Positions 43,819 through 61,576 of a stretch of DNA of 64,000 nucleotides are shown here, piece by piece; positions within the stretch are counted from its first letter, which is position 1; every line of letters begins with the position of its first letter. Made by a program: the position numbers and the translations under genes. The DNA is from an archaeon BMS3Abin17 (lineage in GTDB: Archaea > Nanobdellota > Nanobdellia > Pacearchaeales > GW2011-AR1), in assembly GCA_002897655.1 (NCBI GenBank), contig BDTJ01000038.1, positions 1,957-65,956 on the forward strand, written 5' to 3'. The notes below the pieces were generated by a model. The model had not been told where the DNA came from. It ran no database searches and was given only the letters and a program-made list of their open reading frames with translations.

Positions 43819-44880
43819 TTAATCTTCCCCTGTCCAATTTTCCATTATCTTTCTGATTTCCTGAACTTCTTTAGATACTTCTAATGAATCTACATCAAAA
43901 TTTGCAAGATTAGTAATATAAATTGAATTTAAATCAGAAAGGGCCTCTTTAAGTGTTCTTTTTCTGTCCTCAAAGATATTTCCCAGATAAAAATTCATGA
44001 TAATTTCTTTTTCCATAACATTTGACCCGGTAGTTTTACTTTTATATAATTTATACAATGCTATCAGTTTCCAGAGAGAATCAAATGCAATAAAAATTTC
44101 TTTTCTATAATCCTGAAGTTTTAAGCCAATTAAATTCATTTTTCCCATTATTGAGATGGCTTTTTCTGTTAGGTCAAATATTTCCGGAAATTCAGGATTT
44201 ACAGGACAGGCAATAAAAAACTTATTCAGCAGATTTTCAATTTCTTGGTTTTTCCATTCAGATTTATTTAAAATATTAAAAATTTCATCAGAAAGAACAT
44301 ATAACTCTTCACCATATTTCTTGTGTTGCTCTTTTTGTATCTGAACAGAGCCTTTTTTTCTGTTTTCATCTGCAAATTCTTTAATTAAATTTTGGACTTT
44401 AACTTTATGTTTTAAATTATATTCTTCATGATATTCTGCAGTTGGATCCACCATTATCTGGGGCACCATGCCGTATAAATACCAAACAATCGGCAAATCA
44501 TTTAATCCGGATTCTTTATTATCAATAACATGCACTGCACATTTTGCAAGATGTGTTTTTGAAGGAATTCTTCCATGTTTTTTATATTCTTGTTTTATAA
44601 TGTAAAATAAAGTTCTAAATTTTTTCCTTTGTTCATCAGTTATTGGAAAATCAAAATAAGTATCCCCCATTACCTTTTGATATAATGTTAGCTTCTCTGT
44701 CGAGATGACCTCTTTAATTCTTCCCTCTTCACCCAGTTCTTTCACAAATTTCTCCACAGTCAGCCAGTTCGAATCAATGTCATTGCTTATTTGCTGGATA
44801 GTAAGAGGCTTTAACCATAAGATGTCAAGAATTCTCTCCTTTACCTCTTCACCCTTGCGCTTCATATGCACATCATGCAA
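43819..44880 (-). CDS. Hypothetical protein with an N-terminal wHTH
   Basis: 353 aa; abuts the PIN-like ORF in the same orientation. Confidence 0.35.
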   Translation of the reverse strand: MHDVHMKRKGEEVKERILDILWLKPLTIQQISNDIDSNWLTVEKFVKELGEEGRIKEVISTEKLTLYQKVMGDTYFDFPITDEQRKKFRTLFYIIKQEYKKHGRIPSKTHLAKCAVHVIDNKESGLNDLPIVWYLYGMVPQIMVDPTAEYHEEYNLKHKVKVQNLIKEFADENRKKGSVQIQKEQHKKYGEELYVLSDEIFNILNKSEWKNQEIENLLNKFFIACPVNPEFPEIFDLTEKAISIMGKMNLIGLKLQDYRKEIFIAFDSLWKLIALYKLYKSKTTGSNVMEKEIIMNFYLGNIFEDRKRTLKEALSDLNSIYITNLANFDVDSLEVSKEVQEIRKIMENWTGED

Positions 44881-44958: not shown

Positions 44959-45318
44959 TCATTTGTCTTTTAAAGATATTCTAAAATCCCTTTCTTTTTT
45001 AATCAGGTCCAGGATTTCACTATCAAGTTCCTTCTTTCTGACTGCAGGAGCAAGTTTAAAATAATTTAAAGATGAAAATTTATCATATAAGCCTTTATTT
45101 TTAATGAGATTTACAAAGTTTTCTTTATCTTCAGGGTAAATAATCTTTTCATACTCCTTTACTGAACATTTTTTATTTGTTCCAAAAAGAATATCAGTAT
45201 TTTTTTCTTTAGCTAATTCAATAATTTTTATTTTAATTTCCTTCTCTTTCAGTTCTATTTCACTTTTTAATTTTTGAATTCTTTCAAATTCATCAACTAA
45301 ACCATCATCATTTGCCAT
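44959..45318 (-). CDS. Stand-alone homologue of the C-terminal domain of the Cas4-like nuclease at 60395-61576
   Basis: KKCSVKEYEKIIYPEDKENFVNLIKNKGLYDKF...ERDFRISLKDK aligns with KKASVREFDRIVMPEGEDKAKFLQLLKDKGVYEEC...EKDYRISLSRRK. Confidence 0.45.
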   Translation of the reverse strand: MANDDGLVDEFERIQKLKSEIELKEKEIKIKIIELAKEKNTDILFGTNKKCSVKEYEKIIYPEDKENFVNLIKNKGLYDKFSSLNYFKLAPAVRKKELDSEILDLIKKERDFRISLKDK

Positions 45319-45916
45319 TTTTTATATCCTGTATTTTAATCTCAAGTTCTTTTTCTTCACCAAAATCATATGTAAATCTAAAAGAATCCTTTTTATTCAG
45401 TCCTCCTGCTTCAAGAACAAAACCTATTTTATAATCATCAAGTCCGTCGAATCTTTCCTGCCATTCATCGCAAAGAGTTCCAAAAACATATTTTCCAATA
45501 TGGAATTCATATAAATGCCCAGGATCTAAATCAAATTCCTGTTCTATTCTTTCAAATAAATCTCTCAATGTCTTATTTCCATTGATTTCTATTTCTGAAT
45601 TGTCTTTCTTCCCAGAGATTTTAAATATAAAGGTTTTATCCATCCCAGCCCATTTAAAGTTCTTTAATTCTAATCTCTTCTTTTCATGTTCAATTAGGTT
45701 TGTAATCCTGTCAAAATCTGCTTCTTCAAACATGCTTATTTCTTTTGCTTTAGATAAACCTTCTTTGAGGTCTTTAATAAGAAGTTTTGTAAACCTCTCT
45801 TTAGTCAGTTTTTCCATTTCAGATAGTTTTTCCAGCATTGATTTTTTAGTTTGTTTTGATTGTTGAGCTGGCATTTTATTTTTTGGCTTCACTTGTGAAT
45901 TTTTTATTTTTATCAT
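45308..45916 (-). CDS. Hypothetical protein, partner of the 119-aa ORF
   Basis: 202 aa; overlaps the downstream ORF by 11 nt. Confidence 0.35.
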   Translation of the reverse strand: MIKIKNSQVKPKNKMPAQQSKQTKKSMLEKLSEMEKLTKERFTKLLIKDLKEGLSKAKEISMFEEADFDRITNLIEHEKKRLELKNFKWAGMDKTFIFKISGKKDNSEIEINGNKTLRDLFERIEQEFDLDPGHLYEFHIGKYVFGTLCDEWQERFDGLDDYKIGFVLEAGGLNKKDSFRFTYDFGEEKELEIKIQDIKNGK

Positions 45917-45934: not shown

Positions 45935-46367
45935 TTATCTTTTATCAACCCAGGCTTTAGAATAACCTTTTTTCTCATAAATTTCTTTCATTCTTTCCGG
46001 TGCAAGTTCAGGATTTTCAATTTCATCGACTCTTTCGCTTCCTACTTTTGCCAACCATAGTTTAAATGGCTCTGCTTTCCTTGAAGGAATTGATTGGATT
46101 ATTCTGAATATTGTTTCCACAATCTGTTAGATAATATTTTCCATCAGAAGATTTAAATTTTAGTTGTCCGATTTTTGCGGACAACTCAGAACCTTCTTGT
46201 TTAAGTTTTACTTTCAAATCAGACCAGTATTTTCTAGGACGAGCACTTTCAGTCAAAATCGCAACAATATCTATAATAGAATAAAACCATGCTCCTTCAT
46301 TCAATGTTTTGGGGTACACTGAGCAGTGCTTATTATCTATCCAAATCCTTCTTATTTTCAAAAACAA
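45935..46367 (-). pseudogene. Bro-N/DinD-like (antirepressor-family) gene split by a frameshift
   Basis: Two overlapping ORFs (46062-46367 and 45935-46120). Together they give a Bro-N-like sequence: ...SIPSRKAEPFKLWLAKVGSERVDEI. Confidence 0.4.
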
Positions 46368-46880
46368 TTAATTTTTTACCTCGAAGAGGTCTTGCCCCTC
46401 TTTGGGGTTCTCGTGACCTTTGATTATCTTTTTCATCCATCTTCAACCTCTGAAACCTCGAATACTTTTCTTAATTCCTCAAGTTTTTTCTTATCCAAGT
46501 AAATAAAAATAAAATATTCTTTTTTTCCAATATCAATGCTCCTTATTCCGATTTCTAGATAATCCATTTTTTTAAATTTATCAGAAAATAAACCAAATAC
46601 ATTTACATCTTTTCTTAGGATAATTACAAAAAAACCCACTGATTTTTTATCAATTAAATCAAAAATTTCATCAAAGGTTTTATCTGCTTTTTCTCTTCTA
46701 AGCGATTTACTGCAATCTAACACATCAACTTTTATAATTTTGCTATTCTCTTTAGCCCATTTTAAGACTTTCTTTATTTTTTTAACATTCTTTTTTTTCA
46801 ATTCATAAAAAATATCACCCATCTTCAACCTCCAAACCAACCTTCTTCAAATTTAATATCTTTCTGATTCATTTTTCACA

Positions 46881-48308
46881 TTAATTTTTAACAATCCAGC
46901 TCCCCCCTTTATCAGGACCAATTCTTTTAATAATACTTTTCTGCTTTAATTGTTTAATATTTTTTTTAATTCCTTCAAGGCTTAATCTTAATTCATTTGC
47001 TAATTCTTCTCCAGTAATCTTAGGATTCCTGCTCATAAGATAGATTATTCTTAGTTGGGTCTTATTTGTTTCAGGGTACTTTTCAGAGTACTTTTCAGGG
47101 TACTTTTCAGAGGCATTTCCATCAAATTTAACTTTAAGAGGAAAACTAATTTTATAAAAAGTTGTTCCATCTTCTACAATAGGTTCAGTTTTATAATAAG
47201 ATTTCCAACCATTAAACATCTTATCAAAACCATATCCTGCATTTTCAGCTAACTTTAAAACTCTAAAGAGCTTTATTAAAATAGGATTTCTTGGAAAAGT
47301 TAGTTCTTGTTTTCTTAGCACTTCCACAGGAACAGGCAAACTCCCGGGATTCATAAATTCAATTCTATCTAAAAAAACTCGAATTCTCGGTTTCATAGTG
47401 CTAAAATAGTCTGAATGTGCCAATAAATTCACAATTGCCTCTCTAATTGCAAGAACTTGCGGTTGATTTTCATCCCTAAAAAATCCCTTGAGTTTAAAGG
47501 GGATATCTATTTTAGTGTGTAATCTTTCAGATAAACTAAAAAAATAATTAAAAAGATTTTTTTGCAAAGGCATTCTATATGTATATCTTTCTGGAGCATC
47601 GGCATAGGAAGTCCCATGAATTTCTAAATAATCTATCATAAAATTTGGGAAGATCTTGCTGATAGAATCCTCGGTTCCAAACATTAAAAGTCCTGCAATA
47701 CTCACCTCCTTATTAATCGTTACCCTTAATTTCTCAAAGATTTTTTCCTGAGATAGTTCATTATAAGGGTTTGAGGGATCTAGATTTCTTAGATAATTCC
47801 TAAATCTTTCTAATGTCTCATTATCTAAATCTTTTAATTTAAATTCAGTGGTTTCTTTATCTTTGGTTCCAAAAGCAGAATCTCTAAACATAGAATTAAC
47901 TTCCTCCTGTGTTGCTCTTTGATCTCCACTTCCAGAACGAATAAAAGTATTTTTTGGATTATTATAAAAAACAGGTTTGTTTTCAGAAAGAGGAATATAA
48001 AATGCCAAGATAGTTTTATCTTCAAATTTATACTTTTTTGATTTCACTTTAATTACAGAATTGAATTTAGATTTGTTCCTCAAAACAGTTGTAAAATCTT
48101 GTTCAATTTTTTCAGGGGTTTTAACTCCCCGAATGGAATACTTTTTTCCTTCTTTCCTGACTCCAAAAATTAACCATCCCCCATTAGTGTTTGCAAATGC
48201 AGAAATACTCTCCCAACTATTTTTTGGAATTTCTGATTTTGCTTCTTTAACTTCAAAATCTTCCCATTCAATGTCCTGTAGTTTTTTTATCAATTCACCT
48301 TTGTTCAT
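46881..48308 (-). CDS. AlbA_2 (Schlafen-like divergent AAA) plus HATPase_c_4 putative DNA-binding regulator
   Basis: SAFANTNGGWLIFGV is the AlbA_2 signature. C-terminal HTH. 13-bp tandem repeat at 47073-47112 encoding YPEKYSEKYPE. Confidence 0.55.
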   Translation of the reverse strand: MNKGELIKKLQDIEWEDFEVKEAKSEIPKNSWESISAFANTNGGWLIFGVRKEGKKYSIRGVKTPEKIEQDFTTVLRNKSKFNSVIKVKSKKYKFEDKTILAFYIPLSENKPVFYNNPKNTFIRSGSGDQRATQEEVNSMFRDSAFGTKDKETTEFKLKDLDNETLERFRNYLRNLDPSNPYNELSQEKIFEKLRVTINKEVSIAGLLMFGTEDSISKIFPNFMIDYLEIHGTSYADAPERYTYRMPLQKNLFNYFFSLSERLHTKIDIPFKLKGFFRDENQPQVLAIREAIVNLLAHSDYFSTMKPRIRVFLDRIEFMNPGSLPVPVEVLRKQELTFPRNPILIKLFRVLKLAENAGYGFDKMFNGWKSYYKTEPIVEDGTTFYKISFPLKVKFDGNASEKYPEKYSEKYPETNKTQLRIIYLMSRNPKITGEELANELRLSLEGIKKNIKQLKQKSIIKRIGPDKGGSWIVKN

Positions 48309-49373: not shown

Positions 49374-50828
49374 TTAATCTTTAAGGTCACTTTGAATTTC
49401 TTTTAATTGTTCTAAGGCAGATTCTAATTCTTCTGTTAATTCATCTGCAATAATATCAGGATCAGGAAGTTTGTCTAAATCATCTAAACTTTCATCTTTT
49501 AACCAGAAAATATCTAGATTAGTCTTATCTCTCTTTAGTATCTCTTCGTAACTAAAACATTTAAATCGTTCAGACTCTTTTCTTTTATGTCTATTGTTAG
49601 GATTATAGCATTTTACAAAATCATCTAAATCTTCTTCTTTTAAGGTATTTTCTTTTAATGTAAAATGTTTATTTGTTCTTAAGTCATAAATCCATATTTT
49701 AGAAGTTTGGGATTGTTTTGAAGCTTCTCTTTTATCAAAAAATAAGACATTCGCTTTAACACCCTGAGCATAAAATATTCCTGTTGGTAATCTCAATATT
49801 GTGTGTAAATCACAAGTTTCCATTAATTTCTTCCTTATTATTTCTCCTGCTCCACCTTCAAATAGAACATTATCTGGAAGAACGATTGCTGCCCTCCCAT
49901 TTATCTTTAATATGCTTTTTACGTGTTGTAAAAAGTTTAATTGTTTATTACTTGTTTCTGTCCAAAAGTCATCTCTTACAACTGTTAAGGTCTGTTTAGA
50001 TGTTTCTCCTTCTTCTGTTACAATTGTCTCAGAAGATTTTTTTCCAAAAGGAGGATTTGTCAGAACTATATCATAAACTGCCCCTGGATTTTTCTTCAAG
50101 GAATCCTCAAGGCTTATTGGGCTTTGTTCTCCATTGATCCCATGTAGATATAAATTCATTACACAAAGTCTTGCAACCATTGGGACAATATCATTTCCAC
50201 TAAATGTCTTGTGTTTTAATTTTATATTTTGGTCTCTGTCTAATTCATAATTTTTAACAATATGATTATATGCAGAAAGTAAAAATCCTCCTGTTCCAGA
50301 AGCAGGATCATGAATTTTTATTCCTGGTTCTGGTTTTATAACTTTAACAATTGAGTTAATTAAGGGTCTTGGTGTGAAATATTGCCCTGCTCCGCCCTTA
50401 ACATCTGCCGCATTTTTTTCTAAAAGCCCTTCATAAGCATCACCTTTAACATCTGCATCTAAGTTCAACCAATTTTCTTTGTTTATTAAATCAACAATTA
50501 ATTTTCTTAATTTCGCAGGATCTTGTATTCTATTTTGAGATTTTCTGAATATAACCCCTATAATTCCAGATTCTTTTCCCAATTCATTTAATAATTTAAT
50601 ATAATGTCTTTCTAGTTCTGGACCTTCTTTGTCTAAAAGAGATTGCCAATTATATTTCTTAGGAATATCGCTTTTTTTACTGTAAGGAGGCTTTGTTCTC
50701 TCATCATCCATTTTCAAAAACAGCAGATATGTCAGTTGTTCAACGTAATCCCCATAAGAAAGACCGTCATCTCTAAGTACATTACAATAATTCCATAATT
50801 TACTTACTAATTGTTGTGATGTTGTCAT
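49374..50828 (-). CDS. hsdM: Type I restriction-modification methyltransferase subunit
   Basis: HsdM N-terminal region, an AdoMet pocket and the motif NPPFG (LTNPPFGKKS). Confidence 0.9.
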   Translation of the reverse strand: MTTSQQLVSKLWNYCNVLRDDGLSYGDYVEQLTYLLFLKMDDERTKPPYSKKSDIPKKYNWQSLLDKEGPELERHYIKLLNELGKESGIIGVIFRKSQNRIQDPAKLRKLIVDLINKENWLNLDADVKGDAYEGLLEKNAADVKGGAGQYFTPRPLINSIVKVIKPEPGIKIHDPASGTGGFLLSAYNHIVKNYELDRDQNIKLKHKTFSGNDIVPMVARLCVMNLYLHGINGEQSPISLEDSLKKNPGAVYDIVLTNPPFGKKSSETIVTEEGETSKQTLTVVRDDFWTETSNKQLNFLQHVKSILKINGRAAIVLPDNVLFEGGAGEIIRKKLMETCDLHTILRLPTGIFYAQGVKANVLFFDKREASKQSQTSKIWIYDLRTNKHFTLKENTLKEEDLDDFVKCYNPNNRHKRKESERFKCFSYEEILKRDKTNLDIFWLKDESLDDLDKLPDPDIIADELTEELESALEQLKEIQSDLKD

Positions 50829-51055
50829 TTTTTTAGATAATTTATAACTTTATTATATCTTACTATTTGTAAAATGTCAAAGAAGATTACTCCTATTAAA
50901 ACAATCCATGTTACATAAGCTAATTTTAATTTAAATGTTAAATCTTCAATAGTGTAATACCCAATTGAAGTTGATAAAGTAACTGCTAAAAGAGTAAACA
51001 ACCAAGTCCTCGCGTTTTCATATTTTACCTTTAATAATTCATATTCTCTATCCAT
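50825..51055 (-). CDS. Small two-TM protein embedded between hsdS and hsdM
   Basis: 76 aa; its ends overlap both neighbours. Confidence 0.35.
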   Translation of the reverse strand: MDREYELLKVKYENARTWLFTLLAVTLSTSIGYYTIEDLTFKLKLAYVTWIVLIGVIFFDILQIVRYNKVINYLKK

Positions 51056-52205
51056 TTTTCACCAACTTTCCTTCAAAAGCAACTTTCAGGATTGATTTTC
51101 TGAGCATCTCTGCCTTTTTCAAAGAGTTATCAACAACTTCTTCAACTTTGTCTATAACTGAAAATTTTGATTCTATATTGGAGACTATTTTTTCCCAATC
51201 TTCTTTATCTGGAAGAGTCACAATAAAAGAGTTAAGGGTATTTTTGGATATTGCTTTAAAAGTAGTGCCAGTCCCTTTACTATCTAATCTTTGCCCATAA
51301 TAATTTATTAAATAGAAAAGTAAAAGAGATTCAGTTTCATTTTTAGCTTTTATTGCCGCAATTCCTCTACCAATAGCACATTTTTCAGGAGAAATATTAC
51401 AAGGACCAATTGGAGCTCTTATTGATACTAACAAGTCCCCTTTATCTGCTTCTTTGTTATACTTCTCAGTCCAAATTTCTATATTTGGAAATTTATAATT
51501 AAATTCTTTTTTTCCTTGAAAAAAAGCTAAACCTTTTTTTTCTTTATTATAATATTCAGATTTTGGTGATTGCCCCATAATTATTTCAAATGCTTTTCCA
51601 AGTTCTGTTTCTTTTCCATTCTCAAAAGCCTTTTTCAAGACAGCTTTTTTGTAAAGTTCTATTTTTTGTTTGACTGTTTTTAGTGATTTGATTGCTTCGT
51701 CAAGTCGTGTGAATTGAGTTTCTATGGCAGAGACGATTTTTTGTCTATCTTCAAATTTTTCTGGATAATATATTACATATTCTTTTAAAGTATTCGGAGA
51801 AATATTTGGTTGTGCCCCCCCATACGCTTCTTTGAGAATTTGTTGGCTTTTTGTTTGTAGAAAATAATAAATATAATCTTCTGATTTTTTATCTTTAGAT
51901 CTTATTAGCGCAATCCTTTGATTTAATAAAGCTGGTTTACTTTCCTTATAAATCCCAATTTTTCCAGTAGTTGCACCAGATAAGGCAATTAAAATATCAT
52001 CTTTTTTCAACACAGAATTTTTTATTTTCTCATTTAATTCCTTATCATAATAATGTTGATTTTTTTCTAAAATCATAACTTCTTGACCATTAGTTATATT
52101 TGAAATTCTAATTATTGGGATTCCTTGTTTTGCAAATTCTGAACTTTTGAAAGCAAACCCTGATTTTACTTTTGCTACTTCGTTAAGTTTTTTTGTTTGT
52201 CGCAT
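51048..52205 (-). CDS. hsdS: Type I R-M specificity subunit
   Basis: Two target-recognition-domain halves separated by conserved central and C-terminal coiled regions; 385 aa. Confidence 0.8.
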   Translation of the reverse strand: MRQTKKLNEVAKVKSGFAFKSSEFAKQGIPIIRISNITNGQEVMILEKNQHYYDKELNEKIKNSVLKKDDILIALSGATTGKIGIYKESKPALLNQRIALIRSKDKKSEDYIYYFLQTKSQQILKEAYGGAQPNISPNTLKEYVIYYPEKFEDRQKIVSAIETQFTRLDEAIKSLKTVKQKIELYKKAVLKKAFENGKETELGKAFEIIMGQSPKSEYYNKEKKGLAFFQGKKEFNYKFPNIEIWTEKYNKEADKGDLLVSIRAPIGPCNISPEKCAIGRGIAAIKAKNETESLLLFYLINYYGQRLDSKGTGTTFKAISKNTLNSFIVTLPDKEDWEKIVSNIESKFSVIDKVEEVVDNSLKKAEMLRKSILKVAFEGKLVKNG

Positions 52206-52206
52206 C

Positions 52207-52611
52207 TTAACTTCTTCCCCCTTTTTTTATTAATTCAATAATTTGTGGTAGATACTGAACAATCCAGGGTGCATTGATCAATAACCATTTACCTATATCT
52301 TTTCCCTTTACTTTTTTTTGTAATTCTATTTCTTCAACAAGTCTTTGACCCTCAGAAGTAATTTTTATATTAAGTGGTTTCCCATTCACCATTCTTATAT
52401 CTATAATTAGATTTTCTTCTTCTAAGAATTTCATTTGCTGATTTATGTTAACCTCGGAGCAACTCAATTTTTGAACTATTTCCTTAAATGAAGCTCTTTT
52501 ATTTTCCTGGTTTAACAAATAAAGAAATCCTAAAATTTTATATCTAATTAATATATTTTCTAAAATTAAATCTTTCATTTTCTTTCTTTCCTTGGAAATA
52601 AAAAATACCAA
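52207..52611 (-). CDS. wHTH transcriptional-regulator-like protein
   Basis: 134 aa; ILGFLYLLNQENKRASFKEIVQKLSCSEVNINQQMKFLEEENLI looks PadR/MarR-like. Confidence 0.35.
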   Translation of the reverse strand: MVFFISKERKKMKDLILENILIRYKILGFLYLLNQENKRASFKEIVQKLSCSEVNINQQMKFLEEENLIIDIRMVNGKPLNIKITSEGQRLVEEIELQKKVKGKDIGKWLLINAPWIVQYLPQIIELIKKGGRS

Positions 52612-53048
52612 ATTTCTTTAATTAATACACCTGATAATCCTGCAATAAAAATTCCAAATATAATTAAGGAAACTGGCTTAGCCCAATTTGATTTTTCAAG
52701 ATTAAGGATAAAAATAAAAAGGGTTATTAAAACATTTAATGCTGTTGCAACCGCAATAATTATAGTAGCTTTAAGAGTTTTATTATTAATCTGTTCTTGT
52801 CTTTGATTTTTATTATATTCTTCCAAGGAAGCAAAACCCTTTGGTGCAAGTTTGATATAAAATATATCTATCCAATTATTTGATTTATTTTTCTCCCTTA
52901 TTTTTTGTAAAAATATAAACCTTTCTTCACGCATAGCTTCAAAATCAGTTAGAAAAAACCCCAAGTCCTCAAATTTTTCTATTAATTCTAAGACATTTGG
53001 CTCTTGTTTTGATAATATTTCAAAGAGTTTTATGTAGTTGTTTTTCAT
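52575..53048 (-). CDS. Membrane protein (C-terminal two TM helices)
   Basis: 157 aa. Confidence 0.3.
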   Translation of the reverse strand: MKNNYIKLFEILSKQEPNVLELIEKFEDLGFFLTDFEAMREERFIFLQKIREKNKSNNWIDIFYIKLAPKGFASLEEYNKNQRQEQINNKTLKATIIIAVATALNVLITLFIFILNLEKSNWAKPVSLIIFGIFIAGLSGVLIKEIWYFLFPRKERK

Positions 53049-53076
53049 TTTGATTGTGGCTATTTATTTTGAGCTG

Positions 53077-53634
53077 TCATTTTTCTAATATTCTCTGGGC
53101 TTCATCTATTCCAATAATTTCTAATTTATATTTAGTAAATCTCTTAGCAATTTTTTTAGATTCTTTTTTGAATTGACTATCGCTTGTTATTAAAAAATCG
53201 CATTCATTACTTAAAGCCGTTGCTAAATGAACACAATCTGGAGACCAGATATTTGAACTTGAACTAATATCACTAGCAACTTGCCAACCATCTTCTGATA
53301 AAGAAAGTTTTTCTAAGAAAGGATAAGATTCTAATAAATTATCAAGGTATTCAGAAATTTTCTTGAAATGATGATCTTCTAAATTAGGATTATTTCTTTC
53401 TCTAATTATCCTTTTAAATTCAAATTTTTTATTAATTGCTTCTTGAAAGAATAAATCATCTTTTTTAGCATCACAAAGTTCCATTAAAAGAAATGCAGAG
53501 GTATAACAGCTACATTTTTTCTTATTTTGAAGATTTCTTATTACTTCAATTAAATGAATCGCTTTTGTATTTCTTTTTTCCATAATATCTCTAATAAAAT
53601 TTGTATCTAAGTAAATCTTAGGATATTTCTTCAT
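53077..53634 (-). CDS. PIN-domain (VapC-like) protein
   Basis: N-terminus MKKYPKIYLDTNFIRD plus downstream acidic residues. Confidence 0.45.
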   Translation of the reverse strand: MKKYPKIYLDTNFIRDIMEKRNTKAIHLIEVIRNLQNKKKCSCYTSAFLLMELCDAKKDDLFFQEAINKKFEFKRIIRERNNPNLEDHHFKKISEYLDNLLESYPFLEKLSLSEDGWQVASDISSSSNIWSPDCVHLATALSNECDFLITSDSQFKKESKKIAKRFTKYKLEIIGIDEAQRILEK

Positions 53635-53795
53635 TTTCTCCTCCTCTTTTTTGTAGTATAAAAAGTAACTTTTACAGGTTTTTTTATTGTTTTAGTCGCT
53701 TTAAATTTTACAAGAGTTCCATCTGACCTTCTAAAACGAACTACTGTTGGTTTTTTTATTTTCTTTTTCGCCCAAAAACTAATTCTTCTTGCCAT
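53631..53795 (-). CDS. Unlisted 54-aa strongly basic ORF, translationally coupled (ATGA) to the PIN gene
   Basis: My own translation: MARRISFWAKKKIKKPTVVRFRRSDGTLVKFKATKTIKKPVKVTFYTTKKRRRK. It contains the GGAGG upstream of the PIN start. Confidence 0.3.
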   Translation of the reverse strand: MARRISFWAKKKIKKPTVVRFRRSDGTLVKFKATKTIKKPVKVTFYTTKKRRRK

Positions 53796-54456
53796 CTTCA
53801 ATCTCCAAAATTTTAATTAACTCTGAATCAATATGTTTTATTTTATTAACGCTTCTTATTGTAATATCAACTTTTCCACCAGGAGCGGATTTTATATTTA
53901 TATCAATTTTCTCTTTTTTTCCAGTTATTTTATTATCAAAAATCTCTTTATCCCAGATAATTGCATTTTTATCTATAATCATTATTTTTCCTCCCAACAC
54001 TTTTTCAGAAACTGGGATTATTCTATATCTTCTATCTAATCTTGGATATTTTTCTTCATAGTCAATTCTATTCATTAGTTTAGTAAACACTTCTACATAA
54101 AACTTAGTTGAAAGGAGAATTATAGCATTATTAAGATCAAATATATACTTTGGAAATTCATTAATATCTTCTTTAAATTTTATCTTTTCTATTTCATTTT
54201 TATCTAAAATACTTTTTATTAAAAAATCTACCTCCCCCCCCGCAACCATTCTACCTGCGCCAGGAAGGTATTCGGAAAATGAAGGACTGATAAAAATATT
54301 CTCATCAATTAAAGGCCTTATCCCTATTTGAATAAATTTTCCATCAGTTTTTTCAACTAAATTCACCTTAGCAATATCTTCAATAATTAAACTTCTATTA
54401 TAATCTTCTAAAGTATATTCATAAAATTTCTTAATTTTTTCTTTATTATAACTCAT
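53779..54456 (-). CDS. Hypothetical protein
   Basis: 225 aa, within the R-M operon. Confidence 0.35.
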   Translation of the reverse strand: MSYNKEKIKKFYEYTLEDYNRSLIIEDIAKVNLVEKTDGKFIQIGIRPLIDENIFISPSFSEYLPGAGRMVAGGEVDFLIKSILDKNEIEKIKFKEDINEFPKYIFDLNNAIILLSTKFYVEVFTKLMNRIDYEEKYPRLDRRYRIIPVSEKVLGGKIMIIDKNAIIWDKEIFDNKITGKKEKIDINIKSAPGGKVDITIRSVNKIKHIDSELIKILEIEDGKKN

Positions 54457-54680
54457 TTTGTTTTCTCTCCTTTTTCAAAGGGGTTAAGAGTTATTTTTTC
54501 TAAAAGTTCAATTTTTGCATTTTTATTTGAATTCTCATTTTCTAAAAATCTTATCCTAGGTTTAATATCTTTTTTTAAATCTGAAACCTGTTTTAAAACC
54601 CACCCCAAAAAAATCAAAATTAAAGTTATAAATATCCCTAGAATCCATTCCCAACTTAAACTAATTGTTGAAGTTCCCAT
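54453..54680 (-). CDS. Small single-TM protein
   Basis: 75 aa; shares its boundary with the hsdR stop. Confidence 0.3.
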   Translation of the reverse strand: MGTSTISLSWEWILGIFITLILIFLGWVLKQVSDLKKDIKPRIRFLENENSNKNAKIELLEKITLNPFEKGEKTK

Positions 54681-57451
54681 TACCCCCCAACCCCCAAATT
54701 TATTCCCCTAATCATCTTTCCAAACTTTTCCTGTCCTTCAAAGACCTTCACGGCTTTGCCTAATCCTCCCATTTGCTGAAGTGAACCATATTCAAAATCA
54801 TCTGCTTCAATTTCTGCTGTTGTTGCAATATGTTGTTTTATTTTTCCTAACCAGGTTAGTTGCTCTTTTGTGAATTCTACTCCTTGTTCTTTTTGTGTTG
54901 CAAGCCATTCTTTAAATCTCTTTTCAATTGTATCGAGATATGGCTCAAGCTCTTTTGTTTTTTCTATCTCATGCCTGAGGAGAGATATAAAATCTGCTAT
55001 TCTCTCAGATTTTGATTGGCCTTTAACCTTCCCTTCTTCTAAATTTTTGTAAGCATTCCAAAGTCTTGAAGTGGTTAGCCCATAAGAGGGGGATTTAATT
55101 GTCTCTGAAAGACTTTTAAGATCTTTCCATTTAATCTTTCCTTTATGTTTATATAATATCTGAATTGCATCTAATTCGTCTTTATTTTTCTTGATAAATT
55201 CTCTAAAAGAACCTACAACCTCTTTTGCTTTTTCTTTAGCAATTTCAGAAAATCCTGCATACTCAACTTCATCAAGAGTAACATCATCAAGAATTATCTC
55301 TGTTTCTCTTTTAATTTCAGGAAGTCTTTCTAAAAGTTTTGGATTCTTAGTAAAGTCTAGGGAAGCATTTTTGATTCTTTTTCTTGTAAATTCTTCAATT
55401 TGTGTTTTTGTTGGTTCATAGCCAAATTCTTTTTGAGCTTCTTCTAATATTTTATCTCCATCAACTGCCAATACTAGTTCCTTAGAAAAATCACTTAGTT
55501 TTTTACCTGAAATATTCTGGATTTCTTTATTTTGCTTTTCTGTTAATCTTTTTTCTAATCTAGAAAGTCTTGAAGCCATAGAAGAAAGATGCTCTTTCTT
55601 TAACTTGCCTTTTCCATATTGAAATAATTTTATTAACTTTTCAAAAGAAATCTTTTTACCTAACTGTTCTAATGGAGAAGTCTCATTTAAATCTTTATTG
55701 TCTAAAACCCCCACTGCATCAACAATAACAAATCTTTCTTTAACTGCATTAGGTGTAACTTGTCTAAAATCTTCTGCTTTCATAACTCTAACCCCCCTAC
55801 CTTTCATTTGTTCAAATAATAACCTGCTTTTAACAGCCCTCATAAAAAATACTATCTCCAAAGGTTTAATATCAGTTCCTGTCGCAATCATATCCACAGT
55901 AACAGCAATCCGAATTTTAGGAGATGTTCTAAAATCCTTAATCAGTTGTTTTGGACTTATACCCTCTGTTTTATAAGTTATTTTAACTGCAAAATCATTC
56001 CCTTCTCCAAAAACCTCTCTGACAATTTCCAAGATATCCTCTGCATGGTCGTCACTTTTTGCAAAAATTAAGGTTTTAGGAACCCAATCTCTATTAGGAA
56101 AAATACTTGGCAACATTTTATCTTTAAATGTTTTTATTATTGTCCTAATTTGGTCTTTTGATACAACTCTTCTATCAAGTTCCTCTGCATTATATTGAAC
56201 TTCATCCTCAAGTTTTTCCCATCTTTTTTGTCTTGTTCTTTTGTCTCTTTTAATAATCGTCTCTCCTTTTGGAATAATATTTCCTGTTTTTGTAACTTTT
56301 GTTCTAATATCATAAACATCAAAATCAACATTTACATTATCTGCAACAGCTTCCTCATGCCCATACTCCATAACGAGATTTTTATTAAAAAAACCAATAG
56401 TGCCTTTAGAAGGTGTAGCTGTTAAACCAATTAAAAAAGCATCAAAATATTCTAAAACCTGCCTCCATAATTTATAAATGGATCTATGGCACTCATCAAC
56501 AATAATTACATCAAATGTTTCTATTGGGATCTTAGGGTTATATTCTAATTTTTCATACTCTCCAGATAAAGCATCTATAAACTTTTCATCATCCTCTTGT
56601 TCCCCTGTTAATTTTTCTCCTTTAATTATAGAATACATTCTTTGAATCGTGGAAATACAAACCCTTGTAGAGTCACTTATTTTGTTTCCTTTCAACAATT
56701 GAAGATTGTGCAAATCAGTAAATTTCCTCCCATCTCCAGGAACTTCAAAATTCTCAAATTCTTGTTCTGTTTGTTCCCCTAAATTAGACCTGTCCACTAA
56801 AAATAAAATTCTATGAGCATTGCCATTTTTAATTAAATCCTCACAAATATTAACTGCAGTAAAAGTTTTTCCAGAGCCTGTTGCCATCTGAATTAATGCT
56901 TTTGGATTTCCATTAGCCAAAGACTCCTTAATGTTTTTTATAGCTTTAATTTGAACAGGCCAAAGGTTTTTATTTTTATATTCTTTGTTTAAAGAAAGAT
57001 TATACCTTAAATTTCCTTTTTTTCCTTTTTTAATCCAATCCTCCAGAGTTTCAGGTTTATGAAAAGCGAAAACCTCTCTGCTTCTTGGCTTTGCATCCCA
57101 CTTATTAGTGAATCTAATTTCAGAGCCAGAGGATTCATAAAGAAAAGGCAATTCTCCTTCGAGTTTCTCAAAATCCTCTGGAAATCCTTCAGAATATTTT
57201 GCAGTTTGAGGCTCTTTACCCATTAATGACTCCCCTTCTTTTTTAGCCTCAATTACTCCTACTGCTTTTCCATTTACAAATAAAACATAATCTGCCTGGT
57301 CTTTACCCATTTGGAAGTATTCAACAGCAACTCCTTTTGAGCTATGAACATTGGCAATTTTATAGTTTTGAATATTCCACCCAACAGCATCTAATTGGGG
57401 GTTAATCTTCTCATGCCTTGCTTTATCTTCTGGTCTTAATGAGTGTGTCAT
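54680..57451 (-). CDS. hsdR: Type I R-M restriction subunit
   Basis: Walker A QMATGSGKT, DECH box (IIVDECHRS) and helicase C; 923 aa. Confidence 0.9.
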   Translation of the reverse strand: MTHSLRPEDKARHEKINPQLDAVGWNIQNYKIANVHSSKGVAVEYFQMGKDQADYVLFVNGKAVGVIEAKKEGESLMGKEPQTAKYSEGFPEDFEKLEGELPFLYESSGSEIRFTNKWDAKPRSREVFAFHKPETLEDWIKKGKKGNLRYNLSLNKEYKNKNLWPVQIKAIKNIKESLANGNPKALIQMATGSGKTFTAVNICEDLIKNGNAHRILFLVDRSNLGEQTEQEFENFEVPGDGRKFTDLHNLQLLKGNKISDSTRVCISTIQRMYSIIKGEKLTGEQEDDEKFIDALSGEYEKLEYNPKIPIETFDVIIVDECHRSIYKLWRQVLEYFDAFLIGLTATPSKGTIGFFNKNLVMEYGHEEAVADNVNVDFDVYDIRTKVTKTGNIIPKGETIIKRDKRTRQKRWEKLEDEVQYNAEELDRRVVSKDQIRTIIKTFKDKMLPSIFPNRDWVPKTLIFAKSDDHAEDILEIVREVFGEGNDFAVKITYKTEGISPKQLIKDFRTSPKIRIAVTVDMIATGTDIKPLEIVFFMRAVKSRLLFEQMKGRGVRVMKAEDFRQVTPNAVKERFVIVDAVGVLDNKDLNETSPLEQLGKKISFEKLIKLFQYGKGKLKKEHLSSMASRLSRLEKRLTEKQNKEIQNISGKKLSDFSKELVLAVDGDKILEEAQKEFGYEPTKTQIEEFTRKRIKNASLDFTKNPKLLERLPEIKRETEIILDDVTLDEVEYAGFSEIAKEKAKEVVGSFREFIKKNKDELDAIQILYKHKGKIKWKDLKSLSETIKSPSYGLTTSRLWNAYKNLEEGKVKGQSKSERIADFISLLRHEIEKTKELEPYLDTIEKRFKEWLATQKEQGVEFTKEQLTWLGKIKQHIATTAEIEADDFEYGSLQQMGGLGKAVKVFEGQEKFGKMIRGINLGVGG

Positions 57452-57485: not shown

Positions 57486-59189
57486 CTATTCAAATCTTCT
57501 CATAAATTTATTAATTTCTTCTGCAATTCTCTTTCTTCTGAACTCTAAAAATTTCTTATAATTATTTATCTCCCAATCCTCTTTTTCTAGAGAAATAAGT
57601 TGCGAAGCGAGTGTATCTTTGCCCCTTTTTTCAATAATCTCTTTAAGATATATTTTTGGCTCCTTTTTTGCTATTTGACGGTTTGTTTTCCCCCCTATAA
57701 ATGCAAGATTAGATATTTCATTTACTTCTTTTTTCTCAAATCCCGCCTTTTTTAGTAGAGATTTGGGAAATATGTGGTGATATTGTAATGAATGAGCTCT
57801 TCCAATATGCCTTTCTGATAGAGAAAGGCCAGTCCACCAGTCTTTTGCTTCATTTTGTTTAAGAACAAAATATAACATTGAAAAAAATGGACTTCTTATC
57901 CCCTTTTCAAATATGTCCTTTTCACCCACTTCAAACTTTTTAACATGTGTTTGTAATTGGTTAAGCAAATTATCTACACTATTCCCTCTAAAAATAATAG
58001 ATATATCTAAATCTAGGATTGATTCAGAAGAACCCATCCCATAATGACCCCTCATATGTGCTAAATAAAACCACCTTAATAATCTTTTTTCATCTTCTCC
58101 AGATAATTTTTCATTATTATTCATTGCATAAATTGCTATCGGGATTAATAAAAAAGGGGAGGAGATATTGGAAAGATTATCTACTCCAGCATTGCTTCTT
58201 AGGAAATTCACAGCAAATCTTAGACCATTCTTTGCAAGTTCCCATGACTCCTCTAATTTTTTCTTTTTTATTTTCCCCACAGTCTTGAATTTACTTTGTT
58301 GGGTAGCAAATACTACAAGAGTTCTTACAGGTAACCCGGATTCAAGAATATAATCTTCATCTTCTTTGAATTCTTTAGCAAATTCCTCAATTTGATCCAT
58401 AAAACCTTTCCATTTAGAAGTAATTTGAGCAAGTGCTAAATCAGAACCTCTCAACTTTATCCCTAAAGAATTAACTCTAACAAATATCTCTGTTACTTCT
58501 TCATAAGATTTATTTTTATCTAAAACTTGCATACCATATGTATAATCTGCTATTTTCTTTAAATTTTGTAATCGTGCAGAATATTTGTCCCATTTTTCGT
58601 CATCAGAATTTATCCCAATCGATTTTAAAATTTGACTTTCAGATTTCTTAAAAACATCTGAAACTGGTATCCATAAAGGATTATTTTTTAAGGTTTTACT
58701 TGATACAACAAAAATTTTCTTTTTTAGTTCTTCCCATATATCTCTTTCAGAAGAATCTCCATTTTCTAAATTCTCAGAACTTTCTTGGCCATCATTTTCA
58801 TCAACTTCAGTCACTTCAACAGGGGGGCCTTCTGGATGTTCTAGATTGAATAAGATCTCGATAGGCCTTTTCCTTTTTCTAACATGAACTGGTTCTCCCG
58901 ATATAATTGCAGATAAAGAAGTGATTCTTTGCTGACCATCTAAAAGAAGCCATTTTTGTGAGGTTGTTGGAGGTTTAGTAGACTTTATTGCTAAATCTCT
59001 TTCTTGAATATCTTCATCTGTTTCCCAGACTAATATAGTCCCTGAAGGATATTTTCTATACAAAGAATCTAATAGGTCTCTTACCCTTGTTCCAGGCCAG
59101 ATATACTTTCTTTGCATTTCAGGCAATTTTAATTCTTTTCTCAATACTTTATCTACTAATTCTCTTACCGAAATATATGTTTCAACCAT
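57486..59189 (-). CDS. GmrSD-like DUF262/DUF1524 type IV restriction-like enzyme
   Basis: N-terminal DUF262 motif LLLDGQQRITSL. C-terminal His-Me finger (HHIFPKS...N). Confidence 0.8.
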   Translation of the reverse strand: MVETYISVRELVDKVLRKELKLPEMQRKYIWPGTRVRDLLDSLYRKYPSGTILVWETDEDIQERDLAIKSTKPPTTSQKWLLLDGQQRITSLSAIISGEPVHVRKRKRPIEILFNLEHPEGPPVEVTEVDENDGQESSENLENGDSSERDIWEELKKKIFVVSSKTLKNNPLWIPVSDVFKKSESQILKSIGINSDDEKWDKYSARLQNLKKIADYTYGMQVLDKNKSYEEVTEIFVRVNSLGIKLRGSDLALAQITSKWKGFMDQIEEFAKEFKEDEDYILESGLPVRTLVVFATQQSKFKTVGKIKKKKLEESWELAKNGLRFAVNFLRSNAGVDNLSNISSPFLLIPIAIYAMNNNEKLSGEDEKRLLRWFYLAHMRGHYGMGSSESILDLDISIIFRGNSVDNLLNQLQTHVKKFEVGEKDIFEKGIRSPFFSMLYFVLKQNEAKDWWTGLSLSERHIGRAHSLQYHHIFPKSLLKKAGFEKKEVNEISNLAFIGGKTNRQIAKKEPKIYLKEIIEKRGKDTLASQLISLEKEDWEINNYKKFLEFRRKRIAEEINKFMRRFE

Positions 59190-59227
59190 ATTATTTCCTA
59201 TAATTCTCCATTTTTAATCATTTCCAT

Positions 59228-59356
59228 TCACTCCTCCCCAACATCCCCTCTCTTACTCAAAGATATCCTGTGATCTTTTTCAATGTTTGCCCTATCCTTT
59301 TCCGGCATTGCATCAAGCATTCTTTTTCTGTTCTTGGGTGCCTGCAATCCAGTCAT
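59228..59356 (-). pseudogene. 42-aa ORF that duplicates the Cas4-like C-terminal tail
   Basis: My own translation: MTGLQAPKNRKRMLDAMPEKDRANIEKDHRISLSKRGDVGEE, compared with the Cas4-like end ...KDKVNIEKDYRISLSRRKDLEEE. ATGA overlap with the Fic stop. Confidence 0.4.
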
Positions 59357-60300
59357 TTTTTCTTTTTTTCAAGCTTCTCCTGAAATTTTTTGTATTCTTT
59401 TATATACAATTTTATTGTTGGTTTTAAATTTTTATTTAGTTCATATTCTTTTAATGTTCTGTAATATTCCTGGCTATTTTTAAAATCAATATTAACCGGG
59501 GGGAGGTTATGTTTAATTAAGATATTATTTAATAAGATTCTTCCAACCCTTCCATTTCCATCTGCAAATGGATGGACATTCTCAAATTGGTTGTGTATTA
59601 CAGCACCAAGAATTAATGCAGGATATTTCTCTTTATTTTTGTTATACCAATTTATTAATTCTTTTAATAAGTAATTAATTCTGGTCTGTGGCGCCCCTTC
59701 ATGAACCACTTGCCCAAGATTATTTGTGACAACAACTTCTTCTCCTTTTTTTCTTAAGCTTCCTGCAAAGGATTTAGAATTTTTAAAAACAATTTTATGG
59801 ATTTTTTTAATTAAATTAATTGAAATATGCTCTTTGGCCTGCCTGATAAATCTTATTGCTTCATCTACTCCATAAGCTTCTGCAATATCTTCTTTTGATT
59901 TGTCCAGCCATTTGTCTTTTTCTAAAATATCCTTAACTTCTTTCTGGCTTAATTTGCTTCCTTCTATAGCATTAGTATTATAGGTAAAAATTTTAGAGAA
60001 TATTTTCCAGTCTTTTTCAGATAAATGGAATATCTTTAAGGGAATCTCTGCCTCTAATTTTTTTATTTCCTTAATCTCCTGTTTAGTCAATTCAAAATCT
60101 AAAGGGTCTTTTATGACTTTATATTTGTGTATTTCTTCAAGGATTAGTTTTTCTGCAATTTCTCTCCTTTCTTTTAATTTTCTGTTGCTTAAATCAGTTC
60201 CAAGATACTTTCTGAATTTATGAACTTTTAATCCCTCCCTATAAGAATGAGCTAAATAATATTTTGTTTTCTTTCCCTGCTTTCTTTTTTCAATATGCAT
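59353..60300 (-). CDS. Fic/Doc-family protein
   Basis: Fic motif HPFADGNGRVGR. Confidence 0.8.
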   Translation of the reverse strand: MHIEKRKQGKKTKYYLAHSYREGLKVHKFRKYLGTDLSNRKLKERREIAEKLILEEIHKYKVIKDPLDFELTKQEIKEIKKLEAEIPLKIFHLSEKDWKIFSKIFTYNTNAIEGSKLSQKEVKDILEKDKWLDKSKEDIAEAYGVDEAIRFIRQAKEHISINLIKKIHKIVFKNSKSFAGSLRKKGEEVVVTNNLGQVVHEGAPQTRINYLLKELINWYNKNKEKYPALILGAVIHNQFENVHPFADGNGRVGRILLNNILIKHNLPPVNIDFKNSQEYYRTLKEYELNKNLKPTIKLYIKEYKKFQEKLEKKKK

Positions 60301-60394: not shown

Positions 60395-61576
60395 TCACTC
60401 CTCCTCCAAATCCTTCCTTCTACTCAATGATATCCTGTAATCTTTTTCAATGTTTACTTTATCCTTGATTTCTTGCTCAATTTCATCCTTGAGGACCTTG
60501 CTGTTAAGCTTTGGATAGCAGAGCATAGAGCATTCTTCATACACCCCTTTATCTTTTAATAACTGCAGGAACTTTGCCTTATCTTCTCCTTCAGGCATGA
60601 CAATCCTGTCAAACTCCCTGACAGAGGCTTTCTTATTGCTTCCATACGCCACATCTATCTCAAACTGCTTTGCATATCTTATCAGGTTATCCTTAAATTC
60701 TTCTTCTGCTGTTTTTAATTCTGAAAGCTTTGTCTTTATCTCAGAATACTTATCAACCAACTTAACACCTTCATCTTCCTTGAACTGTTCAACAACTTCA
60801 ATCTTTTCCAATTCTGCCTGATGCTTGAATGAGGGGCATTCTCCCCTGAACCCGCAATAATCACATAAAGCAGTAACATTTGTAGGAAACTCTGTCGCAG
60901 ATTCAATCTCTCTTATCCTCTCAATAACTTCATCCTGCAGTTTTTCCACCTGTTTATCTGTTCTTTCAGAGACAGCATCTTTATTAAAAGCCAGCATATG
61001 CCAGATTAACTTTACTGACTTTGCATCTTTGAATTTATCCTTAACCCAGATAGAATACATTGCCAGCTGCCTGTCTTCATCTGCTTCATTCTGGTCTTTC
61101 ATTCTTGAATTTGTCTTGTAATCACAAACATAATAATTTCCCTTGCTGTCACAACCCAGCTTATCTATCCTCACATGCCACTGATTCCCGTCTTTCAGGG
61201 TCATCCTGTCCTGAGTCTCTAATCCCAGTATTGTCATATCCTCAAAAGGCTTCATCCTGTCATAATAATCTGTCAGGAACTTTTCACCCATCTTCCTGTA
61301 ATTCTCAGCATCAAGGCCTTTCTTAACAATTAAAATATCATAAGAATAATTCTTCTTCCACAAATCCCTGTAGAACTTAACAAGGCTCTCCTTTGCAACC
61401 CTTTGCCTGAATTTCTTTCTTTTATACAGGTCTTCCAGAGCCTGATGCACCATGTCCCCCATAAATGCCTCAATAGTAGTGGGAGTTTCTGGCTTCTTCT
61501 TATCAATATAACGCAGTTTATACTGATATGGGCAATTTTCAAAAGTCGTAACTCTCGAATGCGAGTATGTTGCCAT
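60395..61576 (-). CDS. Stand-alone Cas4-like PD-(D/E)xK nuclease (DUF83-like) with a C-terminal extension
   Basis: N-terminal Cys (FENCPYQYKLRY), a D...VCDYKT motif, QLAMY and a C-terminal CDYCGFRGECP cluster. No cas genes or CRISPR array nearby. Confidence 0.6.
   Translation of the reverse strand: MATYSHSRVTTFENCPYQYKLRYIDKKKPETPTTIEAFMGDMVHQALEDLYKRKKFRQRVAKESLVKFYRDLWKKNYSYDILIVKKGLDAENYRKMGEKFLTDYYDRMKPFEDMTILGLETQDRMTLKDGNQWHVRIDKLGCDSKGNYYVCDYKTNSRMKDQNEADEDRQLAMYSIWVKDKFKDAKSVKLIWHMLAFNKDAVSERTDKQVEKLQDEVIERIREIESATEFPTNVTALCDYCGFRGECPSFKHQAELEKIEVVEQFKEDEGVKLVDKYSEIKTKLSELKTAEEEFKDNLIRYAKQFEIDVAYGSNKKASVREFDRIVMPEGEDKAKFLQLLKDKGVYEECSMLCYPKLNSKVLKDEIEQEIKDKVNIEKDYRISLSRRKDLEEE

Follow-up and report, generated by a model that had tools for sequence, protein, structure and literature searches.

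The C-terminal module of an archaeal Cas4-like nuclease also occurs as a free-standing gene and is probably an autonomous domain

The 393-aa Cas4-like nuclease encoded by the archaeon BMS3Abin17 ends in a module that is also encoded, within the same window (the whole 64-kb stretch of DNA analyzed here), as a separate 119-aa protein. The account that we favor, and to which as a whole we give about an even chance of being right, is that these two are old paralogs of an autonomous, non-catalytic domain that was released from the nuclease and re-partnered as a small subunit, an adaptor, in DPANN archaea. The domain family is uncharacterized, and its organization in these archaea, a conserved tail with swappable heads, is unusual. 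Fission and fusion of domains are in themselves common in evolution, and what is seen here is real but fairly ordinary domain shuffling.

Two homologous copies of the module

The free-standing gene, the nuclease gene and the two domains of the nuclease lie as follows:

44959..45318, minus strand: free-standing 119-aa module gene, an ORF whose product is a member of a conserved DPANN clade of 117-139-aa proteins
60395..61576, minus strand: ORF of the 393-aa Cas4-like PD-(D/E)XK nuclease
60833..61567, minus strand: Cas4-like PD-(D/E)XK nuclease domain, residues 4-248 (PDDEXK_1, E = 9.6e-29)
60413..60781, minus strand: fused module copy, residues 266-388 of the 393-aa protein (A4 profile, E = 4e-43)

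Residues 4-116 of the 119-aa protein align with residues 268-384 of the 393-aa protein, with 50 of 117 positions identical (43%) and 67% positives (BLASTP E = 8e-25 with compositional adjustment on). The Smith-Waterman score of the 119-aa protein against the nuclease tail is 237; 2000 shuffles score 42.5 ± 7.3 with a maximum of 81 (z = 26.8), and six other K/E-rich proteins of the island score only 28-55. Because the score lies so far above those of the shuffled sequences and of the other K/E-rich proteins, the 119-aa protein and the nuclease tail are true homologs. The original prediction, that the approximately 125 C-terminal residues of the Cas4-like protein align with the 119-aa ORF, is thus borne out by a significant pairwise alignment of 117 residues, and the similarity outlasts the shuffling that would have exposed it as compositional bias.

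A six-frame profile scan finds exactly two copies of the module in the window. Their aligned codons share 55.5% nucleotide identity, and they must therefore have diverged long ago. The 119-aa protein is 58-75% identical to its orthologs elsewhere and 43% identical to the nuclease tail; since it is nearer to its counterparts in other genomes than to its neighbor in this one, the sequences indicate that the window copies are old paralogs and not the products of a recent local duplication.

The nuclease that carries the fused copy

The 393-aa translation contains the RecB-type motifs D138, D152-Y-K154 and Q170xxxY174 and a four-Cys (1+3) cluster (C15, C238, C241, C247); these motifs and the cysteine cluster are common to its nuclease part, the CRISPR-associated Cas4 proteins and AddB/AdnAB. 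The nuclease part also has weak matches to TIGR00372 cas4, to PADLOC Cas4/DruK and to the AdnAB nuclease domain. Its TIGR00372 score is 31 bits, below the cut-off of 65, and there is no CRISPR-type tandem or spaced repeat array in the window, so that the protein is "Cas4-like" rather than Cas4; no cas genes were recognized among the window ORFs examined. The neighbors of the nuclease gene encode instead RelE/ParE-like toxin-antitoxin (TA), Fic and GmrSD proteins. Canonical Cas4 lacks the C-terminal module, whereas the window protein has both domains in order, PDDEXK_1 at residues 4-248 and then the module at 266-388.

Predicted fold and family matches

The AF2 model of the 119-aa protein (pLDDT 89.7) comprises, in order, a helix at residues 7-39, strands at 43-45 and 49-60, helices at 65-74, 86-94 and 100-103, and a strand at 107-118; the two strands within 43-60 form a beta-hairpin, preceded by the 33-residue helix and separated by the three short helices from the terminal strand. 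In the AF2 model of the full-length 393-aa protein, a shallow alignment left the N-terminal nuclease half poorly modeled, but the tail has pLDDT values of 84-95 and the same order of elements as the 119-aa model. These models support one predicted fold for both copies and a module that is an autonomous unit. Conservation across the family is mostly structural (G46, P62, G76, L89 and an N-terminal GxxLV[DN]xY), and few basic residues are conserved; as the fused copy is in addition acidic (pI 5.1), there is no hint of a classical DNA-binding surface.

Neither window copy matches a family in Pfam, NCBIfam or PADLOC, and among the PHROGs they match only phrog_27254 (E = 0.0076) and phrog_29534 (E = 0.01), neither of which is significant. 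Profiles A1 and A4 find no solved structure by sequence, and Foldseek against the PDB gives nothing credible (best E ∼1, RdgC), with no Gam-like entry among the matches listed. Of 47 divergent relatives of the module, 12 match DUF7376 (PF24091; best E = 3.9e-6) and five match DUF7307, "Pam3 gp33-like" (PF23984; best E = 3.7e-5), and the DUF7307 match of protein P0241 falls on the module region. The thresholds of these two families are reached neither by the window's two copies nor by the 119-aa clade; a distant relationship of the module to DUF7376 and DUF7307 nevertheless appears likely from the divergent sequences. The literature searched on the function of DUF7376, DUF7307, PF22709, TOTE and MM3350 held nothing informative.

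Related exonucleases of phages

When the two AF2 models were compared by Foldseek with predicted viral structures (BFVD), they retrieved one common set of matches. This set contains many small (118-165 aa) uncharacterized proteins of phages and giant viruses (probability ∼1.0, E values down to 4e-5), as well as full-length phage PD-(D/E)XK/RecB-like exonucleases of 392-398 aa, such as that of Tsukamurella phage TIN4; the exonuclease of Arthrobacter phage KellEzio is aligned over ∼400 columns. A tblastn search with the nuclease leads likewise to the replication/recombination modules of Gordonia and Rhodococcus phages, where the matching "Cas4 family exonuclease" genes encode 396-401 aa. The 396-aa "exonuclease" gp43 of Gordonia phage GordDuk1 can be aligned with the nuclease as far as residue 335, and the module profile matches its C-terminus in the right register, although with a marginal score (8.5 bits). 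The two-domain form is therefore not special to BMS3Abin17. The phage proteins (GordDuk1 gp43, Demosthenes gp38 and those of TIN4 and KellEzio; 392-401 aa) are about as long as the archaeal protein and, like it, have an N-terminal PD-(D/E)XK/Cas4-like nuclease with a Cys cluster followed by a ∼125-aa C-terminal extension of the same predicted fold. They are only ∼21-24% identical to the window nuclease, however, and in Demosthenes gp38 the C-terminal module is undetectable by sequence. Their genes also lie in replication/recombination modules (with RusA, clamp and polymerase genes), not in restriction-modification (R-M) islands.

Distribution of the fused and free forms

A search of 1.84 billion representative proteins with the module profile gave 302 matches. 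Among the best 150 of these, most are stand-alone proteins of at most 165 aa (∼115-165 aa). The second group in size has the module close to the C-terminus of a protein that is 340 aa or more in length (∼350-410 aa), and fragments make up most of the remainder. In the six representatives of ∼380-405 aa that were tested, a PDDEXK_1 nuclease precedes the module. Relatives of intermediate length mostly carry PDDEXK_1 too and look like half-genes from short contigs, and many of the short metagenomic "stand-alone" matches are gene fragments. One apparent multi-module protein, P0255 (696 aa, six matched stretches), proved to be a false positive made up of repeated HTH_Tnp_1 units.

The search with the 119-aa protein gave 221 homolog clusters, the best 120 of which are all stand-alone, 117-139 aa long and 58-75% identical to it. 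The N-terminus MSNDNGLVDE is almost invariant in this clade, and its named sources are always Nano-, Woese- or Pacearchaeota. One database entry, a hypothetical protein from "archaeon BMS3Abin17", has 100% identity to the 119-aa protein. Species-representative genomes contain 19 loci with the module, all in these same groups. The nearest neighbor of 190 of 210 stand-alone modules is another stand-alone module. The 119-aa protein has no tblastn match in 50,697 phage genomes, and no relative of its family was found in the IMG/VR viral contigs scanned. The module is thus widespread in both forms, fused and split, and its occurrence in either state agrees with the autonomy that had been proposed for it and that the confident fold in both contexts also indicates.

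Two loci appear to record the separation itself. At L038 (Woesearchaeota, JAGVZP010000026.1), the nuclease ORF (281 aa) and the module ORF (135 aa) have 29 nt in common, and the linker at the domain boundary carries an exact tandem duplication of 55 nt (coding NKTEEEFKDDDGVKLVDE). The gene is split because this duplication shifts the reading frame and makes a new ATG at the duplication junction; the out-of-frame linker copy creates both the stop codon of one ORF and the start codon of the other, a concrete mechanism of gene fission. What L038 shows is either a fission in progress or an artefact of the assembly. At L036, a 139-aa module that is 58% identical to the tail of the window nuclease is coupled, across a 4-nt gap, to a different protein of 449 aa with weak PD-(D/E)XK/Mrr-like matches. 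Domain fission and fusion, as originally suggested, therefore accounts well for the homology, for the wide occurrence of both forms and for the splits visible at L038 and L036, and comparison of these sequences supports the release of the module from the nuclease as a separate gene several times, independently. A third candidate, a "221-aa PDDEXK_1 + 107-aa" pair at L011, was rejected, as its 107-aa ORF is ParE-like and unrelated to the module.

The free module might have served a nuclease-only gene nearby, and this possibility was discarded for the 119-aa clade. A nuclease-domain HMM run over 27 module loci finds the nuclease family only at L032 (fused) and L038 (split), so the 119-aa clade, with no nuclease-only genes of this family nearby, has apparently been re-partnered and is not the detached subunit of an adjacent nuclease.

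Two-gene cassettes and their upstream partners

The 119-aa gene follows, and overlaps, a gene for a 202-aa protein:

45308..45916, minus strand: 202-aa upstream ORF; its C-terminal half is MM3350/PRiA4_ORF3-like and its N-terminal ∼100 residues are without assignment
45308..45318, minus strand: 11 nt shared by the two ORFs, from the start codon of the 119-aa ORF to the stop codon of the 202-aa ORF (AAAAATGGCAAATGA)

The 202-aa protein matches PF07929 over residues 108-199 (E = 7.9e-10; 39.2 bits, the cut-off being 26.6) and, weakly, PDB 2i1s; its homolog at L023 scores 48.5 bits on PF07929. At the junction, the sequence AAA AAT GGC AAA TGA in the frame of the 202-aa ORF includes ATG GCA AAT GAT, the start of the 119-aa ORF, a geometry that would permit translational coupling.

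The 119-aa gene is nearly always the distal member of such a tight pair, as seen at ∼20 independent loci, and the junctions are mostly of -11, -4, +1 or +2 nt. The original prediction had given the module its own 202-aa partner; the partner does recur, with homologs directly upstream of the module gene at L017, L021 and L023 as well as in this window, but it is not exclusive. The upstream gene encodes a WYL protein at L004, L007, L009/L019 and L025, an AlbA_2-HATPase_c_4-wHTH protein at L001, a DUF6398+TPR protein at L030 and L011b, a Zn-ribbon protein at L011a, a TM protein at L018, and a 171-aa protein without family assignment at L028. Where the gap is at least 94 nt (nitroreductase, XPD-like helicase and HEPN genes), the adjacent genes look like mere neighbors, and some of the other "partners" may be simple neighbors as well. 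A sensor role had also been suggested for the module; it is rather the variable partners (WYL, CARF-like, AlbA_2) that have the look of sensors or binders, and what stays constant is the module. The further idea that more than one system of this island uses the module is plausible in that the two copies have different immediate neighbors.

Possible role of the module and alternative explanations

In the favored account, the domain would be built of an amphipathic helix of ∼33 residues and, after it, a small beta-hairpin/alpha/beta body, and would reside mainly at the C-terminus of archaeal and phage Cas4-like PD-(D/E)XK nucleases of ∼380-410 aa. In DPANN archaea, one lineage of released modules, the 119-aa clade, would have become a conserved small subunit, expressed from the distal gene behind interchangeable upstream "heads" (MM3350/PRiA4_ORF3-like, WYL, AlbA_2-wHTH, TPR or nuclease-like) in cassettes that usually lie in restriction/defense islands, and may have a part in defense. 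The long helix may drive dimerization, and the globular part may dock onto the upstream-encoded protein or the attached nuclease, and/or onto DNA. As a shared adaptor, the module could then assemble different nucleic-acid-binding heads or put them in position, possibly at DNA ends, as end-binding proteins of the Gp157/Mu-Gam type would. A non-catalytic adaptor is suggested because an autonomous, conserved fold is combined with changing covalent or operonic partners and with repeated fission; the heterogeneity of the partners, which include a TM protein, makes a single docking mode uncertain.

It is also conceivable, though we think it rather unlikely, that the module is a true DNA-end-binding ("end protection") domain of the Gam/Gp157 family, which in fused form would tether the Cas4-like exonuclease to double-strand ends and in free form would cap or mark DNA ends (e.g., type I R-M or GmrSD products) for the partner sensor. 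Sipho_Gp157 and Mu Gam are small phage proteins in which a hairpin and an alpha/beta body come after a long coiled-coil helix, and the order of elements (long helix, hairpin, "DK..L..LLK.G" helix, terminal strand) looks like that predicted for the module. Foldseek against BFVD finds a "Siphovirus Gp157" at E = 9e-3 and 4e-3 from two independent models, and a Gam-type "host-nuclease inhibitor" at E = 0.18 and 0.10; PF22709 (Mu_Gam-Sipho_Gp157-TOTE) is matched by two of the 47 divergent relatives, at 1.6e-3; and hhalign of the module against a Gp157 profile of 11 sequences (Sfi21 orf157 and 10 relatives) gives E = 0.004 in the expected register. Phage Gp157 genes, moreover, adjoin genes for annealing proteins and exonucleases, so that it would be reasonable for an exonuclease to be fused to a Gp157-like domain. 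Against this, the profile-profile probability is only 8%, and neither hmmsearch nor hhalign finds anything against Gam (a profile of Mu gam and five relatives), a test of low power in which the Gp157-vs-Gam control is itself weak (22%). Neither window copy matches PF05565, PF07352 or PF22709 in Pfam, the fold matches listed include no Gam-like PDB entry, and the module has no conserved basic surface. Gp107 of Brevibacillus phage SecTim467, the second-best fold match and the best that could be checked, was considered as a bridge and belongs to neither family by sequence. The module is also ∼40 residues shorter at its N-terminus than Sipho_Gp157 and Mu Gam, has no significant sequence relationship to them, and has no annealing-protein gene nearby, whereas their genes lie in recombination modules. 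The resemblance is thus a weak one.

The two-gene cassettes, with their 4- or 11-nt overlaps and their frequent location in TA-rich defense islands, also recall toxin-antitoxin or regulator-effector pairs in which the 119-aa protein would be the effector and the variable upstream proteins the regulators or antitoxins. The upstream genes often encode regulator-type domains (WYL, wHTH, Zn-ribbon, MM3350), and a cassette also occurs in an unrelated housekeeping context (L009), as a mobile cassette might. We nonetheless consider such an arrangement improbable: a domain that in hundreds of proteins forms the permanent C-terminal end of a nuclease is hard to square with a toxin, no known toxin fold or family resembles it, several of the partners are, unlike antitoxins, large (a 460-aa ATPase-like, a 351-aa TPR and a 449-aa nuclease-like protein), and the family is absent from the viral contigs scanned. 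In a comparison with the type II TA families of Pfam, NCBIfam and PADLOC, neither the 202-aa nor the 119-aa protein matches a known toxin or antitoxin. The chance is far smaller still, indeed close to nil, that the 119-aa ORF is only the decaying remnant of a second nuclease gene or that its similarity to the tail is compositional. Both sequences are rich in K and E and a frameshifted Bro-N gene lies nearby, but these explanations are excluded by the shuffles (z = 26.8), by the more than 200 orthologs of the same length that share its N-terminus and 58-75% identity, by its confident AF2 fold, and by the gene upstream, which is an intact PRiA4-like gene with no nuclease-coding remnant. The boldest reading, also one that we hold to be improbable, makes the 119-aa clade the universal "socket" of an unrecognized modular defense or DNA-surveillance system of DPANN archaea, a Gam/Gp157-like end-binding dimer with swappable heads. 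If it were true, the dimer would originally have been borrowed from a phage-type Cas4 exonuclease, the sensor heads would be the WYL, MM3350-like, AlbA_2-wHTH, CARF-like and TPR/SEC-C proteins, and detection of restriction-generated or viral DNA ends would be coupled to type I R-M, GmrSD and Fic responses.

On the favored account of a released and re-partnered adaptor, the extension that is widespread at the C-terminus of "Cas4 family exonucleases" from phages and archaea would be an autonomous, repeatedly detached module, one whose sequence is highly conserved despite the swapping of its partners. By Rosetta-stone logic, the sharing of one tail by nuclease, WYL, MM3350-like and AlbA_2 heads offers a handle on its role, and the MM3350/PRiA4_ORF3 domain, no less enigmatic, gains a candidate partner in the module. 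The small genomes of DPANN archaea are rich in uncharacterized defense islands, and the cassette is a tractable candidate for biochemistry.

Genomic neighborhood

The genes between and around the two copies of the module in the window include the following:

45935..46400, minus strand: Bro-N gene remnant in three reading frames (tblastn with the Bro-N protein of L017, E = 1e-34)
46433..46840, minus strand: 135-aa ORF by the PRiA4-like/module pair, 78% identical to L017:3505-3939, with no Pfam match
46881..48308, minus strand: 475-aa AlbA_2 (Schlafen-like)-HATPase_c_4-wHTH protein (Pfam)
49374..57451, minus strand: type I R-M genes with inserted genes (ORF translations), comprising hsdM (49374-50828), hsdS (51048-52205) and hsdR (54680-57451)
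57486..60300, minus strand: GmrSD (57486-59189) and Fic (59353-60300) genes (Pfam), immediately downstream of the fused nuclease

The Bro-N remnant sits between the 135-aa ORF and the 202-aa gene, with its pieces in frames 1, 2 and 3; the L017 protein used as the query is Bro-N by Pfam. At L017, the homolog of the 135-aa ORF (3505-3939) lies directly upstream of the PRiA4-like gene, and the set of genes common to L017 and the window comprises Bro-N, the 135/144-aa ORF, the PRiA4-like gene and the module. Homologs of the 475-aa protein gene adjoin the module gene at L001 (4-nt overlap) and lie nearby at L004, L018 and L034.

Type I R-M genes are recurrent neighbors. Homologs of hsdM lie 0.5-1.7 kb from the module at L004, L018 and L021, and 1.3 and 2.8 kb from the fused form at L032. 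In the window, the gene order is nuclease, Fic, GmrSD, hsdR; at L032 (GW2011_AR20, a complete genome), it is CARF-like/wHTH, nuclease, GmrSD, two hsdM genes, with ThsB-TIR nearby, and the GmrSD gene directly after the nuclease-module gene is GmrSD_N+HNH. At L011, a Fic gene lies 180 nt downstream of a free module gene. The genes that recur near the module are thus type I hsdM/hsdS (the window, L004, L018 and L021, and L032 for the fused form) and those of AlbA_2-type, Fic and TPR+SEC-C proteins. Association with defense islands is frequent, not obligatory; the module locus at L009 is surrounded by genes for SRP54, RIO kinase and ribosomal proteins.

Type I R-M loci can harbor inserted restriction-linked accessory genes, among them the "rlo" genes of Campylobacter, PrrC, Fic and others. 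We know of no described rlo gene that matches the module. Like such accessory genes, the module gene and its partners are placed in between the hsdS, hsdM and hsdR genes or next to them (in the window and at L004, L018 and L021), and the fused form at L032 is similarly placed among hsd genes. The window itself is part of an archaeal chromosome, as it encodes the DP2 subunit of PolD.

Gene neighborhoods of the free-standing module

The 119-aa module gene of the window and its upstream 202-aa MM3350/PRiA4_ORF3-like partner are flanked by the following features, two of which have relatives in L017, a module-carrying locus of another genome:

46433-46840, minus strand, 135-aa ORF without a family assignment (counterpart L017:3505-3939, 144 aa)
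45935-46400, minus strand, Bro-N family gene in pieces (homologous to L017:302-730, E=1e-34)
43177-44880, minus strand, a 353-aa ORF and a 213-aa ORF, downstream of the 119-aa gene

The 135- and 144-aa ORFs are 78% identical between the two genomes. The L017 ORF overlaps the start of its PRiA4-like gene, and in the window the 135-aa ORF is set apart from the 202-aa gene by the Bro-N remnant alone; the two-gene module cassette may thus include this ORF as a third member. The window Bro-N homolog is scattered across three reading frames, and is either a frameshifted pseudogene or the product of a sequencing error. On the downstream side, the 353- and 213-aa ORFs abut, the stop codon of one being followed directly by the start codon of the other. 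The 213-aa ORF is weakly PIN-like, the 353-aa ORF has no family match, and the pair is not conserved beside the module in other loci.

In each of two genomes (loci L011 and L017), a pair of free-standing module genes occurs within a span of a few kb:

L011:5999-6364 and 8432-8806
L017:8-298 and 4492-4851

The upstream partners differ within these pairs, and in L011 they are a Zn-ribbon and a TPR protein. Large proteins with TPR and a SEC-C motif recur beside the cassette (L001:6362-7894, 510 aa, and L017:1847-3508, 553 aa); the L001 gene directly follows the module gene, with a 1-nt gap.

Fused and split states

The fused nuclease of L032 (archaeon GW2011_AR20, CP010426) sits inside a compact defense island:

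L032:1688-9654, 8xMP membrane protein, ThsB-like TIR, CARF-like/wHTH regulator, nuclease-module, GmrSD_N+HNH and two tandem hsdM-like methylases

In L038 (Woesearchaeota JAGVZP010000026.1), 55 nt at the nuclease/module linker are duplicated exactly and in tandem (4950-5059). The duplication breaks a fused gene into overlapping ORFs of 281 and 135 aa, and its junction is the site at which the new start codon arises. The locus shows either a textbook mechanism of gene fission or an artifact of assembly.

Brevibacillus phage SecTim467 (KT151957) gp107 matches the module by predicted fold, with no sequence match between the two. It shares a recombination block with RecA and gp114, a nuclease-only RecB-family exonuclease:

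87929-88426, gp107, 165 aa
91214-92071, gp114, 285 aa

gp107 and gp114 may be a phage instance of the split state.

Other features of the window

21402-26234, minus strand, 1610-aa ORF, archaeal PolD large subunit DP2 (PDB 6knb_B, E=5e-245)

The DP2 ORF has an intein-like insertion (residues ~1103-1361) that matches the PI-PkoII homing endonuclease and the gp41-1 intein. Within the AlbA_2-wHTH gene, a 12-nt unit present 3.5 times (47069-47110) codes for an EKYP/EKYS peptide repeat immediately ahead of the wHTH domain.
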